A DNA stretch of 64,000 nucleotides, taken from the IMG/VR virus record IMGVR_UViG_3300033144_006348. One strand, given 5' to 3'. Below are positions 11,511-57,963 of this stretch, piece after piece. This stretch comes from a virus. Lineage: Duplodnaviria > Heunggongvirae > Uroviricota > Caudoviricetes. The notes beneath the pieces were generated by a model. That model saw nothing but the letters and a program-made list of their open reading frames with translations, did no database searches and was not told the DNA's origin. A program made the translations under genes and the position numbers. The stretch's first letter is position 1, and each line of letters starts with the position of its first letter.

Positions 11511-11541
11511 AACTTTTAACACTTTGAATAAGGAGTTTAAA

Positions 11542-25866: not shown

Positions 25867-27393
25867 TTATTTTCTCAATTCTGAGCTTGAGGCTGAGCAA
25901 TCCACACCAGAACCTTCTGGTCCACATGGAATATTACCACAGTTATTAGTGATACTAAGAGTAGCAATACCTGCACTTCTAATCAATGCTGTCGCATATC
26001 TTGACAGGATTGTTAGACTTGGAGTGAATCCTAGTGGATATGGATGCAGAACAGCTGGTACATAAGGACTATATACATAAATAGCCTTTAGTTCCTCAAC
26101 TGGTTTGTATACCATTACCATTGTGCCTTGTGTTACAACTGCTGATGTTAGAACTTTCCATTTTCCACCAGCTACTGTAGCACTTCTATATCCCAGGTCT
26201 CCATCAACTGAAGATGTTCCTGTATAATTAAACGTCTGTAAATCTTCAAGGATAGCAACATCTAGTGGGTTCGCTAGAATTGTATTTCCAGCTTCAATGT
26301 TAGTATCAGTGTAAATTTGTCCAGATAGTCTGTTCAGGACAGGGATAATGTTTTCATGCCAGTATTTGGTTCCCCAAGTATACGTTACAGGGGGGGTACA
26401 AGAGAATGTGTCTGTATGACAGATATTATTCAGTCTTGTATTTGCGGTAATAAGAGCATTGATAATTTCTCTATCAATATCTAGCGCCACTTGCTGTCCT
26501 AGAATATTTACTATTTCAGCTTGCATTGAGATATCAAACAGAGCTCTCATGTCTTGCTCCATGTTGATTGTCCAGTTTGCAGAGATCTGGCGGTCTCTAG
26601 CATATAGACGAATCTTTTCAACTGATAGTTCAACTCTTGGGTTGATTTGGTTTTCTTCTAGTGAAGTAGTTACTGTGAAACGAGCGTACAGTACAGTTCC
26701 TACTGTGCTGGAAATGACAACTGTTCCATTTAGATAATCTACTTGACCAGAAACAACATCTGCAACTCCACCGATGCTTACACTTGATGAAAAGTGACCT
26801 TCAACAGCAGGTACGATACAAACATCTGTAAAATGAGTTCCGTCAGCCGAAACAGCGTCAATTTCAAAGTCTCTCTCGAGATGTGCTTGAGCGGGTACTA
26901 GTCCTGCTGTAGCAAGTACGTCATAACCGCTGCTTGGTACAGGCATTATAGCTGCAACCTGTGTTCCAAATGCGACACCCTGTGAAATGTCAGGTGTAAT
27001 AACAGGAGCATTATATTGCAAATCGCTATTTGATGGACTAAATTTTGCTTTAACAAACGCTTTAACTGTTTCTGGTTTATCCATTGGTGAAACAGTAATA
27101 GCTTCTTTGGCAACTAGTTTCGGATAGAACACACGAAGAATAGGCAGAGTCAGTGTTTCATACGGGTTGATCTGAAACATTGAATTTTCAAGCAGATTCA
27201 CTCTAGTATTTTCTGCTAGTTGAATAAAATCTTTTCTGTCTTTCTTATTCTCAATAGATTCGGCCAGGCCAGTTACATATGTTTCAAAGGCAGCATCATC
27301 AACAAGAATAGCTTTTAAATTACCGGGCTTTGATGGGTCTATTCCACTGATTTTTTTAGTGGTTCTATAGACTTCGGTCAGTAATTCTTTCAT
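25867..27393 (-). CDS. Putative major capsid protein (508 aa)
   Basis: Large protein at the end of the head-gene block. Strong RBS GGAGGAAAATAATTATG on the minus strand. The bidirectional terminator lies downstream. Assignment is by size and position, with no motif evidence. Confidence 0.45.
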   Translation of the reverse strand: MKELLTEVYRTTKKISGIDPSKPGNLKAILVDDAAFETYVTGLAESIENKKDRKDFIQLAENTRVNLLENSMFQINPYETLTLPILRVFYPKLVAKEAITVSPMDKPETVKAFVKAKFSPSNSDLQYNAPVITPDISQGVAFGTQVAAIMPVPSSGYDVLATAGLVPAQAHLERDFEIDAVSADGTHFTDVCIVPAVEGHFSSSVSIGGVADVVSGQVDYLNGTVVISSTVGTVLYARFTVTTSLEENQINPRVELSVEKIRLYARDRQISANWTINMEQDMRALFDISMQAEIVNILGQQVALDIDREIINALITANTRLNNICHTDTFSCTPPVTYTWGTKYWHENIIPVLNRLSGQIYTDTNIEAGNTILANPLDVAILEDLQTFNYTGTSSVDGDLGYRSATVAGGKWKVLTSAVVTQGTMVMVYKPVEELKAIYVYSPYVPAVLHPYPLGFTPSLTILSRYATALIRSAGIATLSITNNCGNIPCGPEGSGVDCSASSSELRK

Positions 27394-29204: not shown

Positions 29205-29870
29205 TTAAATCCACTTTTGAAAAAACTGAATAACTTTTGTTTCTACTAGCTTATCAAAATAATCTGGTACAAAACACCTATCTCCAACACAAACTATACC
29301 AGACTGAGACTCAAATAAAGTACTATATTCAAACTTCATTTCATTAAAGTCAACAACTGCAGATTTATGTGAAGGCATAGAGACAGCATCAAAGGCAATA
29401 ATTGTTAATGGAGATTTAACCACATTGTGATCTTGTAATCTTTCAAGCTCAGCTAGACCCCTCATGGAAAAACCAACGCCAGTTCTATCCTTCAGCAGTC
29501 CTAGTAAAATCCCTCCATTGGGTGTACTTGTAGTTTCCATTTCTCCAACAAGATGATTTCCTGTAAAATCGAACTCTCTTACAATATGTGATACCTTCTC
29601 TAAAGACACTGTAGTTTGTCTTATACCATCAATTTGTTCGTTTCCAGTTGGAAGAGGATGGTCTAATTCAGAATAAAAAGCTCTTCTCTTAATTCTTCCT
29701 TCACAATTACTCATTCCTTCTTTTAATACTCCTCTAGGATACATTCTATTATTTTGATTGACCTCATCAACTGATTGTATAGGACATCTGAATATAGCTT
29801 TAGATGGTGTTTCTTTAATCATTTTGGCTTCTGAAAAAACACTTTGTTCTATAATAAGTTTACTTGACAT
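29205..29870 (-). CDS. Head-morphogenesis protein (possible prohead protease or core protein), tentative
   Basis: Placed between the putative scaffold and the small head proteins. No confident motif. Confidence 0.25.
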   Translation of the reverse strand: MSSKLIIEQSVFSEAKMIKETPSKAIFRCPIQSVDEVNQNNRMYPRGVLKEGMSNCEGRIKRRAFYSELDHPLPTGNEQIDGIRQTTVSLEKVSHIVREFDFTGNHLVGEMETTSTPNGGILLGLLKDRTGVGFSMRGLAELERLQDHNVVKSPLTIIAFDAVSMPSHKSAVVDFNEMKFEYSTLFESQSGIVCVGDRCFVPDYFDKLVETKVIQFFQKWI

Positions 29871-35311: not shown

Positions 35312-36796
35312 CTATAGACCAGTAAAACCAGTAAAACATTCTATGAGTTGATCTGTTGATGCGTCTGGCTTTCTTTTATTTGCTAATGGTGATACTTCTT
35401 TAAATTTAAATTTTGAGAAATCAACAGTAAAATTAACAGATATGTTTGCTTTACCACTACGGTTTTTTCCTATTTTACAAAATACTATATCTTGATCTGT
35501 TTGACTCTTAGCTAGAAGAGCTACCAAATCAGCATGCTCTACTTTTTTGATTGATTCTGACATTTGATCAAGATTTAAACTTTGAGCATCAGGGATTTTA
35601 TACACGCCTCTTCCCAGTTGTGAAGCAGTTATTACCGGAATATTATATTGAACTGCAAGAGTTTTTAATGAAAGTGTTATATGACCAAGTTCTAATCTAT
35701 ACATATCATATTTTATATCAGTTTTTAATAGATCAAGATAATCAATGTATAGTCCAGCAATACGTTCTTCCCCATATTCATTGATTACATCATCAACAAC
35801 TGCCATAATATCAAGTGTACTTATACTCATTGCAGGGAAATACTTCATTATAATTGTAGAACCTTTTTTAGCAAGCTCATTATTTATTAGTTGCTTAATA
35901 TCAACACCTTTCATAATATCATCAATCATTTGTGGAATTGTTCTATCAAACATTGGTTGATATGTTCTCATTAGAGATTCTTCAATAGTATTTTCCATAG
36001 TGATATAAATATAAACTTTAGTTATCTCTCCAGGTTTTGGAATCTGATCTTCTAGAGTTGGGGATTTTGTAGCAGATTTGTAGATTGTATTATTTAAAAA
36101 AGTAGATTTACCAGCACCTGAGCCACCTCCAAAAACATATAGTCTTGAAGGTTCGTATCCTCCAGACATTACTTCTTGATCTAAATAAGCAAACCCCGTT
36201 GACGTAGTGTTTTTAGATTGATATTTACTTTTGATCATATCTATAACATGAGTGTAATCGTCTTTGACTAAATCAAGAGAAGCAGCAGCTTCAAGAGTAA
36301 TTGATCTATTACTCTCCATCACATTTGTATATAGTTTTTTAATGGTTACCTCATAGTCTTCAACCATATCATCTATTGAATCAAATGAACCATCCCTGAT
36401 AGAATCTAACACTCTACTAAGTTCATCATAGTTGTTGAACAAAGCATTAATCTTTTTTCTGAGTCTTATTTGTTTTATTATATCCTGAAAAATTTGTTCA
36501 TTAATATTTTCATTCATTTTGAGATCTAAAAAATCAACATGCTGCTTGAACTTTTCACTAAATAAAATACTATCTATAATATTTTCAATAGTTTTATCTT
36601 CAAGAGCCATTGAAGAAATCTTTTTAAGGCAATCTAATTTATTTTTTACAGTTATTGGAACATCAATTGTTTCTTTCTCTGAATAAAAATCTAAAATATC
36701 AAGTATGTCTCTATATAATGCCTTACTTCTCTTAATCATTGACTTTTTATTCAATAGTATTGAAAAACATGAATTTAAAAAAGATTCAGTTATCAA
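35312..36796 (-). CDS. DnaB-like replicative DNA helicase
   Basis: Walker A LYVFGGGSGAGKSTFLNN. Walker B/H2 LYIDYLDLLK resembles DnaB hhIDYLQLM. PVITASQLGR resembles DnaB PVIALSQLNR. Confidence 0.65.
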   Translation of the reverse strand: MITESFLNSCFSILLNKKSMIKRSKALYRDILDILDFYSEKETIDVPITVKNKLDCLKKISSMALEDKTIENIIDSILFSEKFKQHVDFLDLKMNENINEQIFQDIIKQIRLRKKINALFNNYDELSRVLDSIRDGSFDSIDDMVEDYEVTIKKLYTNVMESNRSITLEAAASLDLVKDDYTHVIDMIKSKYQSKNTTSTGFAYLDQEVMSGGYEPSRLYVFGGGSGAGKSTFLNNTIYKSATKSPTLEDQIPKPGEITKVYIYITMENTIEESLMRTYQPMFDRTIPQMIDDIMKGVDIKQLINNELAKKGSTIIMKYFPAMSISTLDIMAVVDDVINEYGEERIAGLYIDYLDLLKTDIKYDMYRLELGHITLSLKTLAVQYNIPVITASQLGRGVYKIPDAQSLNLDQMSESIKKVEHADLVALLAKSQTDQDIVFCKIGKNRSGKANISVNFTVDFSKFKFKEVSPLANKRKPDASTDQLIECFTGFTGL

Positions 36797-36811: not shown

Positions 36812-37222
36812 TCATTTTATTGTTTTTTCTAAATCCTCTATAATAGGATCTGAGGTTTTAGCTTCTGGTAGTATTTTTCTAGCAAAATATTTTCCTATTT
36901 TTTTAGCATACTCACGTAAATCTTCAGTTCTTGGATCAGGTGGATATTTATGTTTTAGAATAGAAGATGAGATAGATGTAGCAGAGACAGAATTACTAGA
37001 TTGACTAGTGGATGTAGAAGAACAGGTATAATCAGGTTCTGGTACTCCCATGATATTAGTAACCCAATCAGTTTTTCCTTCTCCATCACATTGATAACAA
37101 GGAACCTCATATTCTCCTTCCATCCAGTAGTCATTTGTAATAAAAGTTACTCCAGTTCCATCACATAAACTACATATTACTTCGCCTTCTTCAAGATTAA
37201 GTTCCTTCATTGTAATCTCCAC
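36812..37222 (-). CDS. DnaJ-type zinc-finger (CxxCxGxG) mini-protein with a Ser/Thr-rich tail
   Basis: CSLCDGTGV..CYQCDGEGKTDW: two CxxCxGxG repeats plus the conserved KTDW motif. Confidence 0.45.
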   Translation of the reverse strand: MEITMKELNLEEGEVICSLCDGTGVTFITNDYWMEGEYEVPCYQCDGEGKTDWVTNIMGVPEPDYTCSSTSTSQSSNSVSATSISSSILKHKYPPDPRTEDLREYAKKIGKYFARKILPEAKTSDPIIEDLEKTIK

Positions 37223-37475: not shown

Positions 37476-37694
37476 TTATTCTTCCCCCTTAATTAGTTTC
37501 CCATTTTCTTTTAAGACCTCATTAGCTATATTATACTGATCTTCCTCACTAAATTTACTAATATCAAGATATGAAATCAGATGATTTATAAAGTCGTCAC
37601 AAGATTCTTTGCACATTCCTCTAACTATGCATGTTTTACAAGGAGTGGGATGTTTAATTGAAGTATTAAATTCATCAAGTCTTTTATAGATCAT
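37476..37694 (-). CDS. Cys-rich zinc-ribbon mini-protein of the P-C-x2-C-I-V family (PCKTCIVRGMCKESC), encoded in the replication block
   Basis: Same core motif as the tRNA-array mini-proteins. Confidence 0.4.
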   Translation of the reverse strand: MIYKRLDEFNTSIKHPTPCKTCIVRGMCKESCDDFINHLISYLDISKFSEEDQYNIANEVLKENGKLIKGEE

Positions 37695-39079
37695 ACTGTT
37701 AATACCCTTTTTCTTTCATCAAGTTCTACAAATTCATCTTTTGCTAAAACTTTATTGATAAGATACTCACAATAATCTTCATCAAGATTGGTTAACATAT
37801 CCAACGATCTTGCTATACTGAAAGACTTAATCTTTTGTTTTTTTGTTATTTTTCCTTGGTTAAGAATGCTTGTAGCATGGAGGCAAGATTGATGAAATTC
37901 TTCTATTTCTCCATTTACATATAATGGATAAATATCGCCTGCGTAATCTCGCAACCACCCTTGAATTTCAGAAAATAAAAGGATTGGATAAAATAAAGTA
38001 AGATAAATTTTTAAATCTTCATTATATGTATTGGTTTCATCATTATATATTCTATCAACATCAATTCGTTTGAAGTTGAGAGTATCTGCTACATGATCAA
38101 CTAACCTCTGTGCAGCATCAATACATCTTTCTCCTTTGTAGAATCTTTTATCAATATCGGCAGACTTAAGGCTCATTTTCCTAACATATCCATCACCATC
38201 TTTAACATGAATATATCTTGCCATTTGACTTTGCTTATAAGGACCAGATGAATCATAAGTCATATTCAATTTAATTTTATGCTTATCCCAAACAATTTTA
38301 GTAAAAAATTCATAGAATAAAATATCTCTCCAGTTTGCACCTCCTAAAATATGGAAGTTGAGAAAGTCTCTATTATATTTTTTACATTCATTTAAGAGCG
38401 GGATTAATGGAAGGACATAGATAATACAGGGGATAGACATATCAGTAGCCATATTAGCTACTATACCACCTGTTCCATGTGATTGAAAATAAGGAAATAG
38501 TTCATTGTCTCTCATGATTCGAGTATATATATCCCAAAGTTTAGGAGTTCTAAAATGATGAATATATACAATTTTATCACGAACTACTTTTGGAAGGTCT
38601 CTTGCTTGTGTGTATGACTCTAAATTGAGTTTATAAACATCGTAGAAATTATGGAATATTTTACATCCGGGTCCAGGTGGAATATCTAAAATAAAAGCTT
38701 TGGCAAATAACTCATGATTATTTTTCAACCATTCATAATACATTTTAAATAAATTCTCTGATCTTTCTCTGGAAAATCGACCAGTAGATATTTGAAACCC
38801 GCCGCTATCAACATAAAAATCACATTTATCAAATATACCCATCTCTATACACTGATTAAACATTCGGGTTTCATTTATATCATGTTTTTCAAGTTTCTTT
38901 TTCTTATCGAAGTTTTGTCCATATGAGTGAAGAAAACCAGAGCAAGTAGTCGACAAAAATTTCGCTACATCTGCCCTAGTAAAGTTATCATGAAATTGTC
39001 CTCTTTCTCCCTTAATAAATCTATCAACAATGCCTGCTAAGGTTTCAAATCCAGCAAGGATATAACCACTTCTAACCAT
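37691..39079 (-). CDS. tRNA-guanine transglycosylase superfamily protein, DpdA-like (candidate DNA 7-deazaguanine transglycosylase)
   Basis: FYVDSGGFQIS matches the TGT catalytic-region signature TDSGGFQ. 462 aa with no obvious Zn-binding C-terminal motif, consistent with the DpdA-type branch. QueE-like gene nearby. Confidence 0.45.
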   Translation of the reverse strand: MVRSGYILAGFETLAGIVDRFIKGERGQFHDNFTRADVAKFLSTTCSGFLHSYGQNFDKKKKLEKHDINETRMFNQCIEMGIFDKCDFYVDSGGFQISTGRFSRERSENLFKMYYEWLKNNHELFAKAFILDIPPGPGCKIFHNFYDVYKLNLESYTQARDLPKVVRDKIVYIHHFRTPKLWDIYTRIMRDNELFPYFQSHGTGGIVANMATDMSIPCIIYVLPLIPLLNECKKYNRDFLNFHILGGANWRDILFYEFFTKIVWDKHKIKLNMTYDSSGPYKQSQMARYIHVKDGDGYVRKMSLKSADIDKRFYKGERCIDAAQRLVDHVADTLNFKRIDVDRIYNDETNTYNEDLKIYLTLFYPILLFSEIQGWLRDYAGDIYPLYVNGEIEEFHQSCLHATSILNQGKITKKQKIKSFSIARSLDMLTNLDEDYCEYLINKVLAKDEFVELDERKRVLTV

Positions 39080-39118: not shown

Positions 39119-39334
39119 TTAAAATTCTATAGCACCAATTGCTAAATCTTTTATACCAACTGCTTTTTCAATCCAATCTACTTTACCATGACCAGAACAT
39201 TTAAAACATATTTTTTTATGATCCTTGATATTTAAAATAGATCCTACTTCTATTCCGTAACCATTACACTCAGGACATAACTCTTCTCCTTCTTTTACAA
39301 TTACAAAATCTCTCGTCCAATAATTAAAGGCCAC
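39119..39334 (-). CDS. DnaJ-type zinc-finger (CxxCxGxG) mini-protein
   Basis: CPECNGYG..CFKCSGHGKVDW. Confidence 0.45.
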   Translation of the reverse strand: MAFNYWTRDFVIVKEGEELCPECNGYGIEVGSILNIKDHKKICFKCSGHGKVDWIEKAVGIKDLAIGAIEF

Positions 39335-39900
39335 TATTCCATAACCTCAATAGTATAAGGCTCACCAACAGCGAAAGAAAATTCTGCAGCAGCTTTAAGA
39401 GCAGTCAAAACTCTTTTAGATGGAGACTTAACTCTTTTAGAAGTAAAAAATGATCCCAATGCTGTATTTGCTCCTGACCCTATAGCATTATAGTATCCAT
39501 ACGTTTTATTCATTTGGAAATCAAGTAAAATGTCATAGAGCTCACCTTTCCATGCTATTAAAAAATTGGACTGTTGTATTACAGCTCCATCTTCATCATT
39601 ACATATAACTCCCTTTTTAGTAAAATACTCATACATAGCATCAGGCATTTCTTTTATATCTTTAGGTGGAGTAAAGTAATCAGGTTTTATAAGTTGGCCA
39701 GTTCTAATACTTCCAGTAAATCCAATAAGATAGTCTCCATTCCAAAAAAGCTTTTCACAAAAAACAGGTCTATATTCAGCACGAGGATTAGTTGCAACTC
39801 CATCCGCACCCATATAAACTTTGCCATTTTGTAACAAACCAACAACACATGACATACTTATTCTCCCTTTAACTGTATATTTTCTTGCATCCTTAAACAT
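39334..39900 (-). CDS. HslV/proteasome-beta-like Ntn-hydrolase peptidase
   Basis: VYMGADGVAT and AIGSGANTALG parallel the HslV motifs (GDGQAT, AIGSGG). An N-terminal Ser (MSCVVG) sits where HslV has Thr. Confidence 0.45.
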   Translation of the reverse strand: MFKDARKYTVKGRISMSCVVGLLQNGKVYMGADGVATNPRAEYRPVFCEKLFWNGDYLIGFTGSIRTGQLIKPDYFTPPKDIKEMPDAMYEYFTKKGVICNDEDGAVIQQSNFLIAWKGELYDILLDFQMNKTYGYYNAIGSGANTALGSFFTSKRVKSPSKRVLTALKAAAEFSFAVGEPYTIEVME

Positions 39901-40661
39901 TTTGCTAAGTCAAAAACATAATCGTAAATATGCAGACCCTTAGACGAAGCTATCATTTCTCCATCTTCAACTCCAATTTCTGCTGCAACATACTCTTTTA
40001 ATAATTGAATTGCTGCTAAATTTGCTGGTAATCCATTCCACATATCCCATGATCTAAAATATGGATAAAAATGTAATTTGCCGTCCTGTATTCGTGTGTC
40101 TATATGTCTTAAACATGGAGGATCTTTAAGTAACATATCTGTTGGATGTGCCACCTGTAAAACCATTTGATTATTTCTAAACCCTTTATTTTTATAAGTC
40201 CATATCAGTAGATCTATTTGATTAAGACAAGTACACTTAAACTCTTTATCATAAAAAATTATCTCTAACTCAGATAATGTATCTAGTTCATTAATATAAA
40301 TATCAACCTTACCAATATAATGCAACGCTGCTGGAGGAATAGGATATCTTGTTAATCTCTGACCATAAGTGTAACTCTCCCCTTCTTTTAATTCTCCAGT
40401 CATCAAATAAGGAAGATACCCATCTAAATAATCATCTGCAACTGGATTTGGAATCCCATACTGTGGTTCAATTTGTGGTAGTAAAGGTCTTTCGCCAGGA
40501 TGTGTAATATGAATATCAACATAATCAAATTCCAACCTTTTTTGACCAGCATATGACCCTCTATCAATTGTAAAAACGCTTCCCTCAGTTATCATTCTAA
40601 ATAATGTTTGAAACCAAGCATCTCCTAAATGTGTAGCTTTTATATCTTGTTTATTTAACAC
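39858..40661 (-). CDS. Thymidylate synthase (ThyA) family enzyme; may be a dNMP hydroxymethylase rather than a true TS
   Basis: DPPCLRHIDTRIQDGKLHFYPYFRSWDMWNGLPANLAAIQLL parallels ThyA LPPCH..DGKLS.QLYQRS.D.FLGLPFNIASYALL. Confidence 0.55.
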   Translation of the reverse strand: MLNKQDIKATHLGDAWFQTLFRMITEGSVFTIDRGSYAGQKRLEFDYVDIHITHPGERPLLPQIEPQYGIPNPVADDYLDGYLPYLMTGELKEGESYTYGQRLTRYPIPPAALHYIGKVDIYINELDTLSELEIIFYDKEFKCTCLNQIDLLIWTYKNKGFRNNQMVLQVAHPTDMLLKDPPCLRHIDTRIQDGKLHFYPYFRSWDMWNGLPANLAAIQLLKEYVAAEIGVEDGEMIASSKGLHIYDYVFDLAKCLRMQENIQLKGE

Positions 40662-41010
40662 CGTGAAGAATACCTCCTTGTGGGATTACTACAGCAGTTC
40701 CTTCTTGGGACATTAATTCTACAGAAGTCAATTGACTTATTAAATTTTTATCAGTAAGTTTCCCATATACGTCTTCGTATCTGAGAACTTTAAGAATCCT
40801 GTTTTTAATAACTATAGTCTGGCCTCCATGTTGAAGATGAAAAATTAAAACATCTCCAACTTTAATTGCAGAGACATCTTCTCCAACTGTTACAACTCTT
40901 CCATAACCTTGAGGATCTATAATTGCATCAGTAGGAGCAATTATTCCTCCACTAGATTTTTGTCTCTTTAATTCTTCAACGATAATCTTGTCTTTTACTG
41001 CTTCCAGCAT
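40651..41010 (-). CDS. GroES/gp31-like co-chaperonin
   Basis: Size about 110-120 aa. N-terminal MLEAVKDKIIVEELKRQKSSGGIIAPT fits the GroES pattern (roof hairpin, mobile loop GGI). Confidence 0.5.
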   Translation of the reverse strand: MLEAVKDKIIVEELKRQKSSGGIIAPTDAIIDPQGYGRVVTVGEDVSAIKVGDVLIFHLQHGGQTIVIKNRILKVLRYEDVYGKLTDKNLISQLTSVELMSQEGTAVVIPQGGILHGVK

Positions 41011-41296
41011 CTTGTTTTCTCCTTTTCATTTGATATTTTCTTGCTCTATCTTGCATCTCTTTCTTTTTTTCTTCCTCTTTTTTGAGCATTCTGATTGCTC
41101 TAGCTCTTTTCTTCCTCTTTTTTATACTAGGTTTTTCATGAAACATAGAATCTCGAAACTCTTTTGCGATTCCGCTTTTAGAATACTTTTTCCTGAACCT
41201 CTTGATAAGTTCGTGAGTAGATTCTCCCTTTTTCTGGACAACACATATTCCAAAATTCTCTTCTGGCTGATAATGTTCAGGTCTTTCTAAGTGCAT
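40976..41296 (-). CDS. rpsU: Ribosomal protein bS21-like protein with N- and C-terminal extensions
   Basis: ..ICVVQKKGES..LIKRFRKKYSKSGIAKEFRDSMFHEKPSIKKRKKRARAIR aligns with bacterial bS21 (..VIKV.[41 protein letters not shown]). Confidence 0.5.
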   Translation of the reverse strand: MHLERPEHYQPEENFGICVVQKKGESTHELIKRFRKKYSKSGIAKEFRDSMFHEKPSIKKRKKRARAIRMLKKEEEKKKEMQDRARKYQMKRRKQDAGSSKRQDYR

Positions 41297-41583: not shown

Positions 41584-42270
41584 TTATACAAAACCATAAA
41601 TTATATGACTTCGTGACGAAAAATTGAATTTGTACTTCTCTGCAACATCAAAAACTTCTCCTGAATTTTTGATTAGCGTACTTCTATTTGTACCCTCTGG
41701 CATTAACCAAACTCTTCTACTTGCGAATCTATCTTTTTTCATTAATTGAGATAATATTTCTAAATAATCAATCACAGTAGATCGAGTCTCATAAACAATC
41801 TTAATATAAACATCATCAAAATCTAATAATTCTTTAGTTTTTTCAACCGCTTCTCTGAGATCTTCAGGTGTAAATATTTTTGGTGAATATATAAACTTTA
41901 CATTTTTAGCCTTAGATGTTGATAAAACTAGTCGTGGTAATTTATATCCATTTGACTCAACATTTACAATTGGATACTCTAATTCATTTAATAATGCAAG
42001 AGTTTCAGCATAATGTTTCGGTACCGTAGGTTCTCCACCTGTTATTAACAAACCGCAATTTGTATCATCTATCTGTTTTTGAATGTCTGATAAAAGGTGG
42101 GGTGCCTCTGCTGAGATACGCATTTTTACAGATGTATCACACCAAGAGCATTTGAGGTTACACGTTTTGAACCTGAGGATAAGCATTGCTCGGCCCATAT
42201 CTGGACCTTCCCCTTGAAAACTCCTAAAATTTTCGATTAGTCTTACCGATTCCATAAATTCCCCTTTCAT
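41584..42270 (-). CDS. queE: Radical-SAM 7-carboxy-7-deazaguanine synthase (QueE)-like enzyme
   Basis: IENFRSFQGEGPDMGRAMLILRFKTCNLKCSWCDT fits the QueE N-terminus (F.T.QGEG..G.P..F.R..GC.L.C.WCDT). A GGEP motif is also present. Confidence 0.55.
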   Translation of the reverse strand: MKGEFMESVRLIENFRSFQGEGPDMGRAMLILRFKTCNLKCSWCDTSVKMRISAEAPHLLSDIQKQIDDTNCGLLITGGEPTVPKHYAETLALLNELEYPIVNVESNGYKLPRLVLSTSKAKNVKFIYSPKIFTPEDLREAVEKTKELLDFDDVYIKIVYETRSTVIDYLEILSQLMKKDRFASRRVWLMPEGTNRSTLIKNSGEVFDVAEKYKFNFSSRSHIIYGFV

Positions 42271-42286: not shown

Positions 42287-45200
42287 TTAAAAAGTCAATA
42301 CTTCCATGTTTTTCTGTACATCTAATAACGGTTTTAACATCAATTCATATCTATCAACAAATACAAATTTTAGAGTTGCTTTAGTATCTCTTATGAAATA
42401 ATCTGGTAATTTTTCCTCTTCGTCGGGGATTGCTATTACTTGTAACTTTTTCCCTTCTGAAATAAACTTATGATACTTGTTCCTAACATCTTCTGGAGCT
42501 TTCATAATATCAACGCCTGAAACCCAATACATATATGCTCTAGCACCAGGTCTATGACTCATATACATTATTTCATTCCATGCTTCCATAGCCTTAACTC
42601 CCTGTGGAATGAGTTTATAATCTTTCAATGGTCTTCCATATGACACAGGCCTTGCTATGGTTTTACTTCCTTCCTTAATTAATCTGATAAATTCCCCTTC
42701 TTTACTTTGGACAAATTTTAATAGGCCTGATATTAATATCTTTTCAGATTTTAAAATTAACTCTGAAAGTTCAGTTAGAAACTCTTTTGATTTACTTGGG
42801 TAGTCTGATCTTTTAATCTCTACTCCCATATAACTAATTTCGTCCACATCTTCTCCTTCTATATTTATAACACGAATTGCATATCTCTTTTTAGCTAAAA
42901 ATAAGCCTCTTGAAATAACCAACTCATTTTTTAACATCAATCTGTTAAAGTCCATATCTGTATTATGTTTCTTTACAACTTCAATAATTTTATCATTGTT
43001 TAAAAACTCTTTTATTTTAGAACACCAAGAAAGAATATTTTCAACTGTCTTATCTTCTGGAAAATTTTCAAAACAACAAAAAATTGAGTCAGTATCACCG
43101 GTTACAATGTATTCATTACTTCTATCTGGCATTGCCTTTTCAAACATTTCTTGTTTAGTTAGAGGATTTGGTTTTACATATGGTAGTCCTGTACTTAAAT
43201 GCCTCATAAAAGCATCAGCCTCAATGATAGAAGTTTTTAGAGCTTCTTGCCCTGATAGTGTTACTGCAGCAGCTAGAGATGTATCAAAAAATCTGAATGC
43301 TTTATTTGCAACAACTCCATATAAAGTATTAGCTAGCACTTTATAAACTAATTGCCTTGTATAAAAGAATGCTCTTCCATCTTGATCTTTCTTGTCGATT
43401 GCCTCAAACATCTTCTTTTTATATTCTTTTCTGGACTTCATTAAATTATCAACAATTTCTCCAAAAACAGAAAACTCTTTCTTCTGAGGTTTGAAAAAAC
43501 AACCATTAATAGTAAATATTAATTCATCATCTTTTATTTTTTTAAACAGTTGATCCTTAGAAACTTTAACTAATTTATTTTCATACAATGGGTCAATATA
43601 CACTTCAATTTTTTCTGGTAGATTGTCTGGATAATATGTCAATTCATATCCTAAATGAGGATCTTTTGTTTTCATTACATAACTATTTACCCCTATATTG
43701 TATGTAATCATTAAACTTGGATATAGTGAAGCAAAATCAAAGTCTGTGATATGATCATAGATTCCAGGAATTGGTTCAAATACAAATGCTCCTGGATAAT
43801 CTTTCTTTTTAACATGAGGATCAGCATTTTTTGATGCAAGTCCCTTTTTATTCAAGTATGAAACCATCAATGTATCAATTTGTCCGAACGGTGAAGATCC
43901 TGTATCAAAACTTGCATTACAAATAATCCTTAACTCATTCAACAAATTTATATGAGATAATTTATTTTCAAGACTCTCCAAAATTTCAGCATCTCTAATA
44001 TTATACTCTATCGTTGTATTTAACATCTTCCAGTACATTTCGTTAAATTTAAGAGGAAGTTGTATCTTGGTTATTTCTAATTCATGTTGTGCAATAAAAC
44101 CAAGCTTATAGTTCTCCATCTTTGTGAATGTAAAAAATTTATATAAAAACTCTTGATCCAAAATAACACAACCTGGAATATGGCAAATATATTTAGAACC
44201 ATCAATATACACTTCTCCAAAATTTGAAAGTGAATTAGGCGGCATCCCTATTTTATTCATACGGTTATAAATATAGTCCATATCAAAGTTAATGAAGTTC
44301 CACCCACTCATAAAATCTGGATCATCTTTTTTAAAGTCTTTAATAAAAGTATTTAATAACTGTCTTTCATTACTGAATATTTTAATTTCAACTCCTTCTT
44401 GATCTTTAATTGGTTCAGTTTTATTATCAATAACGTAAGTAGTTTTCTTTCCATTTAAAATTGTAGTAATCATATTGATCGGAAACAATGATTTCTTTGG
44501 ACTGGGGAATATAGTTTCTTTTCCAGTATCAACCTCAATATCACAAAACATCACATTATTTTGTGATTTCTGTGGTTCTCCCTCATTAAAGAAATAATAA
44601 TCCATTGTATGTTTCGCTGTAATTTTATAGTCGCCTTCATATGTAATCTTTGGATCTAAACTAAATCTGTCTTTGTATGGAATTGAAATCTGATTCAGGT
44701 CATCATATGGAACTAATTTCCTTGCTTCAACTCCCTCTGGAACTTGATAACATACAAACTCATCACTTTCTTGGTGATAACATTTAAAATTATGTTTGTC
44801 TCTAAAAATATATAAAACTTTACTCTTTTTATTTAAATACTGAACATCTATTAATCTATACTCATCCGTATAAAACTTATCTGGAATCCTGTATCTATGA
44901 ACGCCTTTTCCTAGCGTTTTCCCTTTTACAGTTGCTTTTATATCAATCTTCTTTCCACTAATTAATTCAGCAACCTTTGCTATATCAGCTTCAAATTTTG
45001 GCATCCATAAATTTTTATTTCTATTTACAAACGATGGATGAACTGTCAAGAATAATTTATAATCCTCCCACTCAAAAATCTGTCCGTGGATATTAGTTAT
45101 TCCACTCTTGGCAATTCCAAAAGCAGACATTGGGCTTCCGCCCATCAAAAGAACTAAATCTGGATTGCATACTCGAATCATATTCATACAATTCTCTTTA

Positions 45201-45550
45201 CATCTTTCAATAACATCATCAGTTGGATTTCCTGTAGTTCCATCTGGATTTAATGTCTGACATAAAACAACATTTGTTAAAAGATATTTAATTTTATTCA
45301 ACCCAAACATTTCAAAATATTGACGAAATACTTTTCCCGCAGTTCCTATCAATGGTTGTCCTTTCTTGATTTCATTCTTTCCAGGATTTTCAGCTACAAC
45401 CACAAGAGAAACTTTAGATAAATCATCTTCTGAATTAGTTTCTATCATACAAGAAGGTGTATCTAAAAGAGGACACACTGAACAGTTTGCAAATGATTTT
45501 TTTATTGATTCCAAATATATACCCCTTTCTTTTTGATTGTTTGTTCCCAT
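42287..45550 (-). CDS. Family-B DNA polymerase with 3'-5' exonuclease and an N-terminal family-4 UDG-like domain
   Basis: N-terminus: C..C.L, VVAENPGKNE..GQPLIGTAGKVF and HPSFV, as in UDG family 4. Exo I DIEVDTG. Motif B KVLANTLYGV. Motif C VTGDTDSIF. Confidence 0.75.
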   Translation of the reverse strand: MGTNNQKERGIYLESIKKSFANCSVCPLLDTPSCMIETNSEDDLSKVSLVVVAENPGKNEIKKGQPLIGTAGKVFRQYFEMFGLNKIKYLLTNVVLCQTLNPDGTTGNPTDDVIERCKENCMNMIRVCNPDLVLLMGGSPMSAFGIAKSGITNIHGQIFEWEDYKLFLTVHPSFVNRNKNLWMPKFEADIAKVAELISGKKIDIKATVKGKTLGKGVHRYRIPDKFYTDEYRLIDVQYLNKKSKVLYIFRDKHNFKCYHQESDEFVCYQVPEGVEARKLVPYDDLNQISIPYKDRFSLDPKITYEGDYKITAKHTMDYYFFNEGEPQKSQNNVMFCDIEVDTGKETIFPSPKKSLFPINMITTILNGKKTTYVIDNKTEPIKDQEGVEIKIFSNERQLLNTFIKDFKKDDPDFMSGWNFINFDMDYIYNRMNKIGMPPNSLSNFGEVYIDGSKYICHIPGCVILDQEFLYKFFTFTKMENYKLGFIAQHELEITKIQLPLKFNEMYWKMLNTTIEYNIRDAEILESLENKLSHINLLNELRIICNASFDTGSSPFGQIDTLMVSYLNKKGLASKNADPHVKKKDYPGAFVFEPIPGIYDHITDFDFASLYPSLMITYNIGVNSYVMKTKDPHLGYELTYYPDNLPEKIEVYIDPLYENKLVKVSKDQLFKKIKDDELIFTINGCFFKPQKKEFSVFGEIVDNLMKSRKEYKKKMFEAIDKKDQDGRAFFYTRQLVYKVLANTLYGVVANKAFRFFDTSLAAAVTLSGQEALKTSIIEADAFMRHLSTGLPYVKPNPLTKQEMFEKAMPDRSNEYIVTGDTDSIFCCFENFPEDKTVENILSWCSKIKEFLNNDKIIEVVKKHNTDMDFNRLMLKNELVISRGLFLAKKRYAIRVINIEGEDVDEISYMGVEIKRSDYPSKSKEFLTELSELILKSEKILISGLLKFVQSKEGEFIRLIKEGSKTIARPVSYGRPLKDYKLIPQGVKAMEAWNEIMYMSHRPGARAYMYWVSGVDIMKAPEDVRNKYHKFISEGKKLQVIAIPDEEEKLPDYFIRDTKATLKFVFVDRYELMLKPLLDVQKNMEVLTF

Positions 45551-46167: not shown

Positions 46168-46806
46168 ATGTCAACAGAGTTAATACCTTTAGCTGAAGCG
46201 GAGAAATTTTTGGGTATGGGTAACCTCCCATACGATAAAGATAGAGTTCATAAAAATTGTGACATTTTAGTAGAATGCGCTACAGAAAATGAGGAAGCTG
46301 AAAAAATTCCTCTTTATTATGACGCGAGATTTATTTGCTTGAATGTTATAGGTGAAGCTCAACTTGTCAAAACGGGACAGTTTCATCTTGAATCTCCGCT
46401 AGCAGATGCCTGTGATCGGTGTAAAGGTGTTGGACGAATGCTAAAGCGGGAAATGAAGGAAATAGAAGTTGGATGTCACGACTGCGGCGGCGAGGGTGGG
46501 ACCAAAGAGGAATGCCCTGCATGTAATGGAACCAGGCGACATGTTAGAAAATTTCCAGGGTTGACAATTTCTGTTAACTGCACTCAATGTGATAATAATG
46601 GAGCGAAGATCGCAAAATGCGAAGTTTGCCGAGGATCTGCTAAGGTTAAAAAATCAATTAGCACAGGCAAATTCGCTTCTTCAAGCCAATGTAAATCATG
46701 TAAAGGAACCGGAAAGAAACCTCCAAAGAAACCAAAACGAATTTTTCATGACGATTTTCAGAGTCAATTGGCCGGTTTTCTTAAAAATGCAGCTAACGTA
46801 AAGTAG
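46168..46806 (+). CDS. DnaJ central-domain-like zinc-finger protein (four CxxCxGxG-type repeats)
   Basis: CDRCKGVGR, CHDCGGEGG, CPACNGTRR, CTQCDNNG, CEVCRGSAK, CKSCKGTGK. Lone plus-strand gene after the ncRNA-like segment. Confidence 0.45.
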   Translation: MSTELIPLAEAEKFLGMGNLPYDKDRVHKNCDILVECATENEEAEKIPLYYDARFICLNVIGEAQLVKTGQFHLESPLADACDRCKGVGRMLKREMKEIEVGCHDCGGEGGTKEECPACNGTRRHVRKFPGLTISVNCTQCDNNGAKIAKCEVCRGSAKVKKSISTGKFASSSQCKSCKGTGKKPPKKPKRIFHDDFQSQLAGFLKNAANVK

Positions 46807-47338: not shown

Positions 47339-48271
47339 TTAAGACTCCTTCATTATTTGTATTATGTTCCTATAGAAATCTTTCATATCCTGCCAACATA
47401 AGATTTCAGGAACTTCTAACTCTCCATTTAAAGCTTTTCTTAACTTTCTAAATAAATCTCTCTTGCTTGTGTACAAATATTCTTTTGGTAATAATTCTGG
47501 ATAAGAACACCTTTTTGGAGCTATTGGAATACAACCATTTAAGACAGCATCAACAATCTGGTAGCCAAAAGTCTCTTCCTGTGCTGTAATAAGAAGAACC
47601 TTTGACTCTGCTAAAAATTCATAATAGTTATGCCATTCTTTTGTTTCTTTTCTAATAATTTTAGAAAACTCAAACTCAACCTCTTGCTCAAGACCTGAAT
47701 CAACTTTTTGAATGGATGGTCTTGAAGCTGAAACTATATCAAATTGCTTACGCATTCCTATATATATTTCTAATGGAGGAATTGGGAGTCTAGTAACAAC
47801 TGTATTATCCCAAAGCTTCTTTTGATGATACTTACTTCCTACAAATATTTTCTTAAAAAATCTAGAGTGAGATGTTTCTACTGGAAATTTTATACATTGA
47901 ACTCCAGCAAAATAATCATATTTATTAACACTTGTAGCATGACAAAATGCAAACATCTTTGGAACTAATTTATGATATAATGCACTACAAAATAAACCAG
48001 GAAAACTTATATCTGCTAAAAATAAAATATCATCTGAAAATATATCCATATTCATATATTCTCTTATTTGCTCAGTTTCAAATTCAATTGCTTCACTTAT
48101 AGGAGCAAACATTGATGCTGTTGCTGCTTTATTTTTCATCTTCTTAAAATATGTTTCTCCAAGAGTTACAACTGTAGCGACCTCTCTAAATTTTTTTTGA
48201 AACTCTGAAATCCACCACTCTTGATATCTCATTGGAGTTGGATACTGAGGTACAAAAATTATCCTTCTCAT
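47339..48271 (-). CDS. Putative GT-B fold glycosyltransferase
   Basis: C-terminal EETFGYQIVDAVLNGCIPIA resembles the GT4/GT1 E-x7-E nucleotide-sugar binding motif. 310 aa. Confidence 0.4.
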   Translation of the reverse strand: MRRIIFVPQYPTPMRYQEWWISEFQKKFREVATVVTLGETYFKKMKNKAATASMFAPISEAIEFETEQIREYMNMDIFSDDILFLADISFPGLFCSALYHKLVPKMFAFCHATSVNKYDYFAGVQCIKFPVETSHSRFFKKIFVGSKYHQKKLWDNTVVTRLPIPPLEIYIGMRKQFDIVSASRPSIQKVDSGLEQEVEFEFSKIIRKETKEWHNYYEFLAESKVLLITAQEETFGYQIVDAVLNGCIPIAPKRCSYPELLPKEYLYTSKRDLFRKLRKALNGELEVPEILCWQDMKDFYRNIIQIMKES

Positions 48272-48925: not shown

Positions 48926-49465
48926 TTAAAATATCCATTTACAATACCCTTCAAATAATATATATTTTTTATCATATTCCCACAAGCTTTTTTGATTTGG
49001 ATATACATTATTTAACAACTCTTCTTTTTTATCTGGTTCCTGAACTTCATGAATATATGGAGCATTCATATTAGTTGTATAAAAAGTTACATTCATTCCA
49101 GCTCTTGCCAGTTGTTCTCCCATCAGTCCATATTGTCTATGAATTGGATGAATCTCATATATAGGGTCTGGAAAATAAAAAGTAGTGTTTTGATTAATAA
49201 AGGTAGGGGGAACTGTCATAAGAAAGTGTTGCATTTTAACAGAGATGTATTCTTGAATTTTAAGAGCTTCTTCTCTTCTTTTAACATCTGTATTTCCGGA
49301 GTAAATAATAATTAAACTAGATCTTTTCTTCAATACTTCGTAGCAACCAATAATTTCATCATCTGGATGTGGTGCTATTATTACAGTATCGTTTTGAGGT
49401 TGTTTTACTTGCTCTTCATATATGTCATCTTTTTGCACTAATTCTATTATATTATCTTTACTCAT
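48926..49465 (-). CDS. PIG-L/LmbE-family N-acetylglucosaminyl deacetylase-like protein
   Basis: VIIAPHPDDEIIG carries the family hallmark HPDDE. Confidence 0.5.
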   Translation of the reverse strand: MSKDNIIELVQKDDIYEEQVKQPQNDTVIIAPHPDDEIIGCYEVLKKRSSLIIIYSGNTDVKRREEALKIQEYISVKMQHFLMTVPPTFINQNTTFYFPDPIYEIHPIHRQYGLMGEQLARAGMNVTFYTTNMNAPYIHEVQEPDKKEELLNNVYPNQKSLWEYDKKYILFEGYCKWIF

Positions 49466-57444: not shown

Positions 57445-57963
57445 ATGAGAAAATTGAATATGAGTATTTTGGCCTTGATTCTTGGTGGGACCATTGTTTT
57501 ATTTGGATTAAGCAGTTGCTGTTTTTTGGATATTTGTACCATTCCAAAGAGGGGCAGTAACAGTATAGCGAATGTCGTCCCAATGGAATATACCGTTCCA
57601 CAACTGGCAAGTGTAGAAGCGCCTCCACTACTCATGAAGGTCAATATTGCCGAACGTGTCTTGTTTGACTTTGATTCTTCCGATATTGATGCAAGGGGAA
57701 TCATTACCATCAGAAAAGTTGCGTTCTTCATCGACCAGTATCCGGATACGACCATCGTTCTCAAGGGACACACAGATCCGGTCGGGACAGATTTTTACAA
57801 CCAGGGTCTCTCTGAGCGAAGAGCTGAATCGGTTAAAAATGCTCTTATGGAAAATGGTGTCGATCCCGCTGCAATTGTCAGCGTGACTGGTTTTGGAGAA
57901 AGTAAAATTATCTCCGAGATCAACAGGCAAAATCGCCGGGTTATGATTCTGAACATTGAATAA
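57445..57963 (+). CDS. OmpA-family lipoprotein, second copy
   Basis: LFGLSSC lipobox. LKGHTDPVGTDFYNQGLSERRAESV..L...GV......GFGE.........NRRV. Confidence 0.5.
   Translation: MRKLNMSILALILGGTIVLFGLSSCCFLDICTIPKRGSNSIANVVPMEYTVPQLASVEAPPLLMKVNIAERVLFDFDSSDIDARGIITIRKVAFFIDQYPDTTIVLKGHTDPVGTDFYNQGLSERRAESVKNALMENGVDPAAIVSVTGFGESKIISEINRQNRRVMILNIE

Follow-up and report, generated by a model that had tools for sequence, protein, structure and literature searches.

Among the described relatives of the ThyA superfamily, the canonical thymidylate synthases (E. coli ThyA; TIGR03284; PF00303) carry their catalytic Cys in an A-L-P-P-C-H motif, and every one aligned for the current report has Leu at position 143 (E. 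coli numbering). The C-terminal lid of these enzymes is needed for hydride transfer. The archaeal, or methanogen-type, thymidylate synthases (TIGR03283) have a shorter architecture, and their biochemistry has been little studied (PMC9931769). The dUMP hydroxymethylases, as exemplified by SPO1 gp29, YuA gp17 and the ViI-like enzymes, combine Asn177 with Asp143 in a K-D-x-P-C motif, retain R126, have Asn at positions 147 and 165 and are lengthened by C-terminal extensions to a total of 346-383 aa; the genes for the ViI-like enzymes adjoin kinases. To our knowledge, the dUMP hydroxymethylases of the hmU phages have no housekeeping orthologs in bacteria. T4 gp42 and the flavin-dependent 5-hydroxy-dCMP synthases (RB69 gp48 and HY126 AfhB; PDB 9iqc/9iqu) represent a short ThyA fold without the C-terminal lid of the thymidylate synthases; position 143 is acidic in them and position 177 is Asp (cytosine), and the 5-hydroxy-dCMP synthases RB69 gp48 and AfhB have Asn169.

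Three positions are in use for telling these enzymes apart. The identity of the residue at position 143 reportedly correlates with methyl versus hydroxymethyl products (Lee et al. 2026, PMC13326640), Asp at position 177 confers a preference for dCMP (PMC8670742; PMC13326640), and Asn at position 169 is diagnostic of the flavin-dependent 5-hydroxy-dCMP synthases (PMC13326640). We describe here a phage-encoded ThyA-like protein that combines the marks of more than one of these types, and that probably, although with no great assurance on our part, represents a thymidylate synthase, converting dUMP to dTMP, from a deep and uncurated lineage, to which we refer as the "short ThyA" lineage.

Family assignment and active-site residues

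The window (the whole stretch of 64,000 nucleotides of viral DNA that was analysed) encodes a member of the ThyA superfamily, with homology far above chance. The family assignment made in the earlier note from the motif DPPCLRH..DGKLHFYPYFRSWDMWNGLPANLAAIQLL is borne out: the ORF is present, with its Shine-Dalgarno sequence ~8 nt upstream of the start codon; the motif lies at aa 180-221 of the translation; there are matches to Pfam PF00303 (45.7 bits, E 5.9e-12, above the cut-off of 24.3), to the PHROG thymidylate synthase families (E 4.5e-15) and to NCBIfam TIGR03283 (E 4.9e-29, aa 7-250 against profile positions 3-198 of 201); and the AlphaFold2 model (pLDDT 94.8) has the ThyA three-dimensional fold. 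A variable insert of 40 residues occupies aa 105-145.

The protein falls short of both curated equivalog models for thymidylate synthase, scoring 37.2 bits against the canonical TIGR03284 (cut-off 108.35) and 101.3 bits against the archaeal TIGR03283 (cut-off 174.55). The latter is nonetheless its best-scoring curated family, matched over the full length and similarly short in architecture, but the carriers of the window lineage are bacteria and phages. Since ten other family members score 64-110 bits against TIGR03283, all under the cut-off, we place the lineage as a sister of TIGR03283 rather than within it. Cluster look-ups trace nine of the short relatives under this cut-off to Deltaproteobacteria MAGs. 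When solved structures in the PDB were searched with a sequence profile, the best matches were bona fide thymidylate synthases (69 bits), and no hydroxymethylase was among the top 60 matches.

Table 1. Positions in the window of the ThyA-like gene, its active-site motifs and neighbouring genes of interest (residues of the window protein are equated with those of E. coli ThyA)
Feature	Positions	Strand	Remarks
ThyA-fold gene	39858..40661	(-)	267 aa; GTG start; AAGGAGG ribosome-binding site; best read as a thymidylate synthase from a non-canonical lineage of short ThyA proteins
KDPPCLR motif	40107..40127	(-)	C183 = catalytic Cys (C146); D180 at the L143 site; L184 at the H147 site
YFRSWDMWNGLPANL motif	40017..40061	(-)	R203/S204 = phosphate-binding R166/S167; D206 = D169; N214 = N177; A213 replaces F176
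KGLHIY motif	39924..39941	(-)	H244/Y246 = H207/Y209, ligands of the deoxyribose 3'-OH; G242-L243 replaces the canonical D-T/A
ESYTYG motif	40362..40379	(-)	Y99 = Y94, general base for removal of the C5-H; E95 invariant
RNNQ motif	40167..40178	(-)	N164/Q165 at the canonical inter-subunit phosphate-binding pair R126/R127
QueE-like radical SAM enzyme (7-carboxy-7-deazaguanine synthase)	41584..42270	(-)	phrog_2076, E 5.7e-33; same conserved block
Divergent DpdA-like DNA-guanine transglycosylase, 462 aa	37691..39079	(-)	fold match only; same conserved block
310-aa protein conserved in the clade; weak GT-B/GT1 signals of a glycosyltransferase	47339..48271	(-)	sub-threshold profile matches

The residue equivalences in Table 1, which are established for the C-terminal half of the protein, were drawn from alignments in which hhalign placed the N-terminal half at low confidence. 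As in canonical ThyA, the catalytic Cys lies in a P-C context and the equivalents of R166, S167, D169, N177, H207, Y209 and Y94 are kept; the residues aligned with C146, R166/S167 and H207/Y209 are invariant in the family. The differences from canonical ThyA are nevertheless numerous: the catalytic motif reads K-D-P-P-C-L, and the window protein has Asp for L143, Leu for H147, Phe for Q165, Ala for F176 (a firm alignment call), Gly-Leu for D205-T206 and Asn/Gln for R126/R127. Of these departures, some match dUMP hydroxymethylases, i.e. Ala176 (SPO1 and YuA) and Leu206 and Gln127 (both in SPO1 and the ViI-like enzymes); at positions 205/206, the hydroxymethylases have S/N followed by L/F. The Asp at the position-143 site is invariant across the phage and bacterial members of the family and is shared with each of the five hydroxymethylases that were aligned (T4 gp42, SPO1 gp29, YuA gp17, a ViI-like enzyme and AB434P3). 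In the hhalign comparison (of low confidence in the N-terminal half), nothing aligned with the W80-W83 segment or with E. coli residues 231-264, and the lineage probably lacks the C-terminal lid as well as the Trp80 segment.

The uracil-versus-cytosine switch at position 177, which the earlier note had singled out as the residue to inspect, is Asn in the window protein, as it is in 82/82 related viral proteins and in every bacterial ortholog. In the N-terminal half, where counterparts of E58, R21 and W80 were sought, R42, E44 and E95 are the invariant candidates; E65, which was considered as a catalytic residue specific to the phage clade, was rejected because only 15 of 22 clade members have Glu at this site. 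In some homologs the catalytic Cys (P0125) or S204 (P0121) is immediately preceded by an intein insertion; essential and conserved positions are the typical sites for such elements.

Orthologs in bacteria and in other phages

The short ThyA lineage is by no means confined to phages. A pattern scan of the GTDB species genomes matched at least 600 stretches, and among the matches listed 592 encode a relative of the window protein; the chromosomal relatives, which occur in over 590 bacterial species, show 52-68% identity, and more than 7,700 protein clusters match the lineage in a homolog search. Besides the phage clade to which the window belongs, its carriers are Desulfobacterales, Spirochaetota, Thermodesulfobacteriota, Patescibacteria and a wide range of further phages; carrier genomes include Desulfatibacillum alkenivorans DSM 16219, Desulfatitalea alkaliphila M08but, CP070768 and CAXXCO010000002. 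The usual setting of the chromosomal copies is dnaN-gyrB-X-asnS; extended to dnaN-gyrB-X-asnS-htrA, it is conserved in more than 50 Desulfobacterales-type genomes, which include the isolate Desulfatitalea alkaliphila, whose ortholog is WP_246906655.1, and contigs of Mb size. The Spirochaetota copies likewise sit among ordinary cellular genes. The bacterial orthologs bear the name thymidylate synthase in RefSeq.

Comparison of 121 proteins of the phage clade with 51 bacterial proteins yielded 95 positions that are conserved and identical in both sets, including every active-site motif residue, and revealed no catalytic-site residue that is specific to the phage clade. Mean identities are 60.5% between the phage and Spirochaetota groups, 55.1% between the phage and Desulfobacterales groups and 53.9% between the two bacterial groups, values that show no accelerated divergence. 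Because the 95 shared residues encompass all of the active-site motifs, the phage enzyme most likely acts as the bacterial one does, and most likely makes dTMP. No member of the lineage is known to have been assayed, and the databases have, for the archaeal type that is nearest to it, only putative thymidylate synthases with an unknown cosubstrate; activity confined to 5-H exchange or to dehalogenation of BrdUMP has been reported for that type.

Genes of nucleotide metabolism are found near various members of the family. Thymidylate kinase is the gene immediately upstream in two unrelated genomes, one of Patescibacteria (Pfam, 167.9 bits) and the other of a phage; 12 phage loci have dCMP deaminase at a distance of no more than 10 kb; an RNR-like match occurs within 10 kb in 4 phage loci and adjoins the gene in two bacterial loci; and dUTPase, NDK and dNMP kinase are also encountered near some members. 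DHFR was found beside the gene in 0 of ~165 loci, as compared to 3 of the 6 canonical phage thymidylate synthase genes that were fetched. This missing adjacency is weak evidence, because many bacteria keep thyA and folA apart.

The reaction and its product

As a thymidylate synthase, the window protein would attack dUMP at C6 through C183, read the face of the uracil with N214, hold the phosphate with R203/S204 (probably together with R42) and the 3'-OH with H244/Y246, and remove the C5 proton with Y99 after one-carbon transfer. The gene would then serve the phage as an auxiliary function of nucleotide metabolism by which the supply of dTMP is raised during replication. We infer not only the product but also the one-carbon donor and the reductant of such a reaction. 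The whole lineage is atypical for thymidylate synthases in that it is missed by both curated models, has Asp143, lacks the Arg126/127 pair and has no adjacent DHFR. The donor and reductant may not be those of the canonical enzymes: L143 and the elements that contact folate (the W80-W83 segment, F176 and the lid) are missing or replaced, and the gene has no DHFR in its company.

A special case of the thymidylate synthase reading is therefore a dTMP-forming enzyme of non-canonical chemistry, which would use another one-carbon carrier or reductant and might, for example, regenerate H4folate. This version, which we regard as quite improbable, draws on the lineage-wide loss or replacement of the folate contacts (the W80/W83 segment, F176 and the lid) and of L143, on the lack of DHFR in the ~165 loci and on the methanogen type of the nearest curated family. 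Against it, D206 retains the Asp of D169 where the flavin-dependent 5-hydroxy-dCMP synthases have Asn (PMC13326640), and the separation of thyA from folA that is common in bacteria weakens the argument from adjacency. The use of ordinary tetrahydrofolate by the Desulfobacterales also counts against such chemistry.

The earlier note had suggested a pyrimidine hydroxymethylase rather than a thymidylate synthase. A cytosine-specific version of this proposal, in which a dCMP hydroxymethylase or methylase, or a flavin-dependent 5-hydroxy-dCMP synthase, feeds the glycosylation of cytosine, could draw on the ThyA fold and on a possible glycosyltransferase gene in the same module, but it is effectively refuted by two residues and we give it hardly any credence. 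Throughout the viral and bacterial members, the specificity residue at position 177 is Asn instead of the Asp that favours dCMP (PMC8670742; PMC13326640), which argues against a dCMP enzyme, and the Asp kept at position 169, in place of the diagnostic Asn, argues against a flavin-dependent 5-hydroxylase.

The dUMP version of the proposal is a more serious candidate, although we consider it unlikely and do not favour it over the thymidylate synthase reading, given housekeeping orthologs in bacteria that are 55-60% identical. A dUMP hydroxymethylase would transfer the methylene of CH2-H4folate to C5 of dUMP and then add water instead of transferring hydride, with D180 admitting or activating the water at the exocyclic methylene intermediate; the product, 5-hydroxymethyl-dUMP, would be phosphorylated and incorporated as hmU into the phage DNA, where the GT-like protein might glycosylate it, such that this DNA would bear both modified T and 7-deazaguanine. 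The pairing of Asp143, as in 5/5 aligned hydroxymethylases, with Asn177, as in the dUMP-specific ones (PMC13326640), is what such an enzyme would be expected to have, and Ala176, Leu206 and Gln127 are all shared with SPO1 gp29, which also finds the family loci with better tblastn E-values (4e-9) than does E. coli ThyA (1e-6). The missing counterparts of the thymidylate synthase lid and W80 segment, the lack of nearby DHFR, the clade-wide conservation of the GT-like gene in the same module and the location of the gene between those for PolB and a DnaB-type helicase point in the same direction; the last of these is a loose positional analogy to T4, where gene 42 and beta-gt lie between genes 43 and 41.

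Against this, the same residues are all found in bacterial chromosomal orthologs, across hundreds of species and in housekeeping settings where a dUMP hydroxymethylase has no known role. The window protein and all bacterial orthologs share the combination of Asn177 with an acidic residue at 143 (N214 and D180), so the pair may not be diagnostic within this lineage, and the phage clade is not set apart from the bacteria by any residue of the active site. Two genomes have thymidylate kinase directly adjoining the gene, the long C-terminal extensions of the known dUMP hydroxymethylases are missing here, and the evidence for a glycosyltransferase is sub-threshold. The usual companion genes were also not seen in the scanned ORFs of the window or within +/-10 kb of the related clade loci: dNMP kinase, dUTPase/dTTPase, 5-hmU DNA kinase and aGPT-Pplase were all without a match among the ~65 window ORFs scanned. 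For dNMP kinase, dCMP deaminase and Tmk, seed searches covered the window and +/-10 kb of the viral clade loci, in genomes of 130-300 kb, whereas for 5-hmU DNA kinase and aGPT-Pplase the Pfam scans were of the window ORFs. In four more distant clade members, dCMP deaminase is present near the gene.

If the protein is an ordinary thymidylate synthase, the gene is a routine auxiliary gene of nucleotide metabolism, and the idea of a hypermodified pyrimidine in the DNA of this phage falls away, leaving 7-deazaguanine as its only modification. It is conceivable, if doubtful in our estimation, that the short ThyA lineage departs from the classical folate- and hydride-dependent synthases, either as a phage dUMP hydroxymethylase whose hmU is glycosylated by the GT-like protein next to 7-deazaguanine inserted by the DpdA-like protein, or as a route to dTMP without dihydrofolate in cells and phages alike. 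The latter would add a third mechanistic class to those of ThyA and ThyX. The analysis has in any case exposed a very large and highly conserved ThyA lineage of bacteria and phages that is annotated by default as thymidylate synthase and that bears the residue pattern in current use for calling hydroxymethylases. At stake are the reach of the position-143 rule (methyl versus hydroxymethyl) outside of canonical ThyA, the question of whether the carrier bacteria make dTMP by the classical route, and the existence of doubly modified DNA in a globally distributed clade of jumbo phages.

The phage clade and its candidate modification genes

The ThyA-like gene belongs to the core of a large clade of uncultured T4-like phages with genomes of 130-300 kb, in which the gene order PolB(UDG)-QueE-bS21-GroES-ThyA-like-HslV-DpdA-like-DnaB is fixed. 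Genomes of the clade include JBHLRM010000001.1 (255 kb), IMGVR_UViG_3300040801_004532 (248 kb) and IMGVR_UViG_3300001782_000005 (277 kb), and the JGI samples 3300071331 and 3300033388 are rich in its members. A 7-deazaguanine module had been proposed for the window, and its QueE and DpdA-like proteins are real, but FolE, QueD and QueC were not found among the ~65 window ORFs scanned. A DpdM-type link between the ThyA-like gene and 7-deazaguanine was also considered and was rejected, since DpdM, the preQ1 methyltransferase described by Hutinet et al. (2023), is a DUF3109 protein (PMC10516641).

The other modification genes that had been suggested fared less well. The glycosyltransferase assignment of the 310-aa protein is weak, with 16.9 bits for Glycos_transf_1 (cut-off 26.4) and 19.7 bits for phrog_2170; a profile built from the clade matches a GT1 protein in the PDB (E 0.0015), and the gene plausibly encodes a divergent GT-B enzyme. 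The PIG-L deacetylase called at 48926..49465 is unsupported, its match amounting to 19.9 bits against a cut-off of 28.2 and extending over a stretch of just 30 residues.

A tblastn search of 50,697 phage records brought up no close cultured relative: the ThyA-like protein met only distant canonical thymidylate synthases (28-43% identity over less than half of the protein), and the PolB of the window is only 25-27% identical to its matches. The exact ThyA-like and PolB products match no protein on record and a 45-mer has no match in IMG/VR, but nearly identical sequence occurs on a JGI contig of 12.6 kb. An Asgard-archaeal origin or host was entertained and rejected, because the related contigs with Thorarchaeota or Heimdallarchaeaceae labels share the synteny of the phage clade, with a T4-type portal and bS21; these archaeal labels are probably binning artefacts. 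The window encodes two OmpA-family proteins, and a Gram-negative bacterial host is the more likely one.

Identity and active site of the ThyA-like protein

The translation of the ThyA-like gene contains the motif string quoted in the earlier note, and the ThyA fold named there is borne out by matches to Pfam Thymidylat_synt (45.7 bits, E 5.9e-12, above the cut-off), to four thymidylate synthase families of PHROG (best E 4.5e-15) and, most strongly and over the full length, to the methanogen-type model TIGR03283 (101 bits, E 4.9e-29). An AAGGAGG ribosome-binding site lies ~8 nt 5' of the start codon, and the AlphaFold2 model, with 67 homologs as input, has a mean pLDDT of 94.8. The protein misses the cut-off of TIGR03284 (37 bits vs 108), and the curated TIGR03283 cut-off of 174.55 is reached neither by it nor by its bacterial relatives or short relatives of 213-224 aa, which score 64-110 bits. 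Because the members tested miss the latter cut-off and the phage protein the former, the family, here called the short ThyA lineage, is a separate ThyA branch that no curated model covers and that stands nearest the archaeal type.

Alignments to the E. coli and L. casei thymidylate synthases (TSs) with HMMER and hhalign were confident in the C-terminal half. In E. coli ThyA numbering, the protein keeps C146 (as C183), R166 and S167 (R203, S204), D169 (D206), N177 (N214), H207 and Y209 (H244, Y246) and Y94 (Y99). The reference TSs were E. coli ThyA and those of phages phiM19, WH1 and an SPbeta-like phage (the three of six fetched with a DHFR neighbour); the five reference hydroxymethylases were T4 gp42, SPO1 gp29, YuA gp17, a ViI-like enzyme and AB434P3.

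According to published residue rules, Asn at position 177 selects dUMP and Asp dCMP, Asn at 169 marks the flavin-dependent 5-hydroxy-dCMP synthases, and position 143 is bulky and hydrophobic in TS and Asp or Glu in hydroxymethylases (PMC8670742; PMC13326640). The ThyA-like protein has Asn at 177 and Asp at 169, which excludes the cytosine enzymes and the 5-hydroxylase; the dCMP hydroxymethylase entertained in the earlier note fails at the Asn/Asp switch proposed there as a check. Of the residues named in that note as diagnostic of a bona fide TS, the conserved Asn is present and the folate-site F176 is Ala. Position 143 is Asp (D180), in a K-D-P-P-C motif, as it is in SPO1 gp29 (K-D-R-P-C) and T4 gp42 (S-D-F-M-C) and unlike the four canonical TSs tabulated, which have Leu143 in A-L-(A/P)-P-C-H; a fifth canonical TS, from phage D22, keeps Leu143 in D-L-P-P-C-H.

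Residues at positions that differ from the TS state (E. coli ThyA numbering)
Position	TS	Hydroxymethylases	ThyA-like family
143	L	D	D
147	H	N or T	L
165	Q	N or M	F
176	F	A, I, N or Y	A
205-206	D-T/A	S/N then L/F	G-L
126-127	R-R	R-R or R-Q	N-Q

In TS, W80, L143 and the C-terminal lid protect the exocyclic-methylene intermediate from solvent and allow hydride transfer. The global hhalign alignment, of low confidence in its N-terminal half, contains no counterpart of the W80-W83 segment or of E. coli 231-264. Taken naively, the residue signature would be that of a dUMP hydroxymethylase. Since all 82 viral members compared, representing ~45 phage lineages, and all bacterial orthologs show it uniformly, this hydroxymethylase-like signature is a trait of the lineage and no viral innovation.

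Relatives in bacteria and phages, and the probable product

Searched exhaustively with HMMER, 1.84 billion cluster representatives yielded 1,275 related clusters, and with each GTDB species represented by one genome, at least 592 stretches encoding a relative were found among the 600 matches listed; the carriers among these matches are mostly Desulfobacterales and other Thermodesulfobacteriota, together with Spirochaetota and one contig each of Patescibacteria and Aenigmatarchaeota. More than 50 of the 80 loci fetched have the chromosomal context dnaN-gyrB-(family gene)-asnS-htrA, which was found in the isolate Desulfatitalea alkaliphila and on contigs of 2.6-5.7 Mb. Two loci have an RNR-like match between gyrB and the family gene, and on a 417-kb Spirochaetota contig the gene lies amid transporters and peptidases. 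The bacterial relatives are named thymidylate synthase in RefSeq.

In an alignment of 121 phage-clade, 51 Desulfobacterales-type and 11 Spirochaetota/Thermodesulfobacteriota proteins, 95 positions carry the same residue, conserved at 90% or more, in the phage-clade and Desulfobacterales-type proteins. Consistent differences are few (residues 20, 65, 101, 245, 255-256 and a short C-terminal tail, the last common to the phages and the Spirochaetota group); residue 65 was rejected as clade-specific, being Glu in just 15 of 22 clade members. R42, Y82, E95, Y97, Y99, N164, Q165, L184 and N214 are invariant in the phage clade, other phages and both bacterial groups, and E44, D180, F202, W205, A213, G242 and L243 have one to four exceptions, confined to other-phage sequences. 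Because mean identity is 60.5% between the phages and the Spirochaetota group, 55.1% between the phages and the Desulfobacterales group and 53.9% between the bacterial groups, the phage proteins have diverged no faster. Judged by sequence, the phage enzyme almost certainly shares the function of the bacterial one, whatever that function might be.

Several family members carry inteins (P0125, 641 aa; P0121, 679 aa; other homologs of 550-990 aa), at two independent points, both in active-site motifs: directly before the catalytic Cys (DPP/C...HN/CLRS) and between R203 and S204 (YFR/C...HN/SWD). In one genome, Desulfatibacillum alkenivorans DSM 16219 (locus L033, 5090-6118), bacterial QueE and QueD lie ~4 kb from the ortholog, a resemblance to the phage layout that is probably coincidental.

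Some neighbours of the family gene speak for dTMP synthesis. On the Patescibacteria contig (nusG-rplK-tmk-(family gene)-ileS) tmk lies 27 bp upstream (Pfam Thymidylate_kin, 167.9 bits), and in an unrelated IMG/VR phage (locus L143) 3 bp separate the end of a tmk homolog from the family gene that follows. Within 10 kb, 12 phage loci have a dCMP deaminase, an enzyme that yields dUMP, and four have an RNR-like match. In other phages, 149 genes immediately next to a family member were classified with Pfam; they include dNMP kinase (3), NDK, dUTPase and thymidylate kinase, and also glycosyltransferases (3) and NDP-sugar enzymes. In some unrelated phages (IMG/VR loci L104-L163), GT4 glycosyltransferases and NDP-sugar enzymes (DegT aminotransferase, epimerases, cytidylyltransferase, hexapeptide transferase) lie within 3 kb of a family member. 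Searches with five DHFR seeds (tblastn and phmmer) found DHFR in none of ~165 family loci; three of the six canonical phage TS genes fetched adjoin it. Neither Tmk, dNMP kinase, a second TS nor DHFR was found in the window or the clade loci, of which ~20-64 kb is visible per genome of 130-300 kb.

We lean towards the ThyA-like protein being a thymidylate synthase, counting in part enzymes with a non-canonical carrier or reductant, because hundreds of bacteria carry the gene as a core part of the chromosome, the active site is identical in the phages, and tmk adjoins it twice. It would be no textbook TS, and looks hydroxymethylase-like, because of the residue signature and the missing DHFR. That same absence, and Asp143 in company with Asn177 and other positions off the TS state, are what might be expected of a genuine dUMP hydroxymethylase; we nevertheless consider such an enzyme unlikely, as the signature is common to the bacterial orthologs too, and a TS lineage whose active site is built differently is a much more plausible occupant of hundreds of bacterial genomes than a housekeeping dUMP hydroxymethylase. 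A cytosine enzyme, with Asn177 and Asp169 against it, is very improbable. The suggestion of a pyrimidine hydroxymethylase in place of a TS finds support in Asp143, but bacterial orthology and the tmk neighbours favour thymidylate synthesis. The phage gene belongs to an already known kind of auxiliary gene, and the short ThyA lineage is abundant, uncurated and at odds with the residue rule that predicts methyl versus hydroxymethyl products.

Other putative modification genes

The three further elements of a multiply modified DNA cited in the earlier note fared unequally. QueE and the 462-aa protein (DpdA-like by fold; 534 homologs, all unannotated, and no sequence match in Pfam or PDB) support 7-deazaguanine DNA modification in this phage. 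The window ORFs scanned gave no FolE, QueD or QueC. The proposed glycosyltransferase, a 310-aa protein, gives three weak, concordant signals in the same C-terminal region: Pfam GT1 (16.9 bits, below the cut-off, with 3 of 14 clade members matching), phrog_2170 (19.7 bits) and, for the clade profile, the PDB GT1 entry 5i45 (E 0.0015); a divergent GT-B enzyme is a plausible reading. The PIG-L deacetylase at 48926..49465 amounts to 30 residues and 19.9 bits and is not upheld. In more distant clade members (L105, 1930-3253; L119-L121, 1328-2654) the gene immediately before the GT-like gene, and overlapping it, encodes a dCMP deaminase; none was detected in the window.

The phage clade and its gene order

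Features of the window
Feature	Position	Strand	Remarks
ThyA-like gene	39858..40661	-	267 aa, GTG start
B-family DNA polymerase with N-terminal UDG-family domain	42287-45550	-	1087 aa
QueE	41584-42270	-	replication block
Bacterial ribosomal protein bS21	40976-41296	-	
GroES co-chaperonin	40651-41010	-	
HslV-like peptidase	39334-39900	-	
462-aa protein	37691-39079	-	
DnaB-type helicase	35312-36796	-	
Prohead protease	29205-29870	-	
T4 gp23-type capsid protein	25867-27393	-	
GT-like 310-aa protein	47339-48271	-	conserved in whole clade
Adjacent OmpA-family proteins	56789-57421, 57445-57963	+	one with N-terminal glycine-zipper domain
Three small proteins with zinc-finger motifs (see below)	39119-39334 (-), 46168-46806 (+), 36812-37222 (-)		
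Four genes on the plus-strand block (named below)	10403-10900, 10848-11510, 11467-13353, 17568-18401	+	

No close cultured phage was found for the window. Identity to the ThyA-like protein is 67-99% among its 120 best homologs, and the order PolB(UDG)-QueE-S21-GroES-ThyA-like-HslV-462aa-DnaB ... Portal_T4 is identical on all related contigs inspected (among them one of 255 kb, from a Thorarchaeota MAG, and several of 31-131 kb for a protein that is on record from a 304-kb contig as well). Because this order is shared, and IMG/VR holds further contigs of 142-277 kb, the window is assigned to a large, widespread clade of uncultured T4-like phages, in which the ThyA-like gene is part of a conserved replication module. 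The UDG domain (PF03167) and the T4 portal were assigned through the Pfam annotation that these genes carry on related contigs.

The two OmpA-family proteins and bS21 suggest a Gram-negative bacterial host, and archaeal labels on clade contigs are probably binning artefacts. The phage gene order is present on both L004 (JBHLRM010000001.1, 255 kb, 'Candidatus Thorarchaeota' MAG), which also has bS21 and a T4-type portal, and L009 (filed under Thermoplasmatales); P0036, named Heimdallarchaeaceae and known here from the protein alone, is 75% identical. All three most likely represent phage genomes placed by mistake in Asgard or Thermoplasmatales bins; such contigs could mislead archaeal ThyA surveys.

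Beside bS21, GroES and the HslV-like peptidase, the replication module includes three small proteins with DnaJ-type CXXCXGXG zinc-finger motifs, and all of these keep their position across the clade. The plus-strand block encodes, in the order of the coordinates tabulated, a NADAR domain protein, a calcineurin-like phosphoesterase, an SPFH/Band-7 domain protein and a PP2C-type phosphatase.
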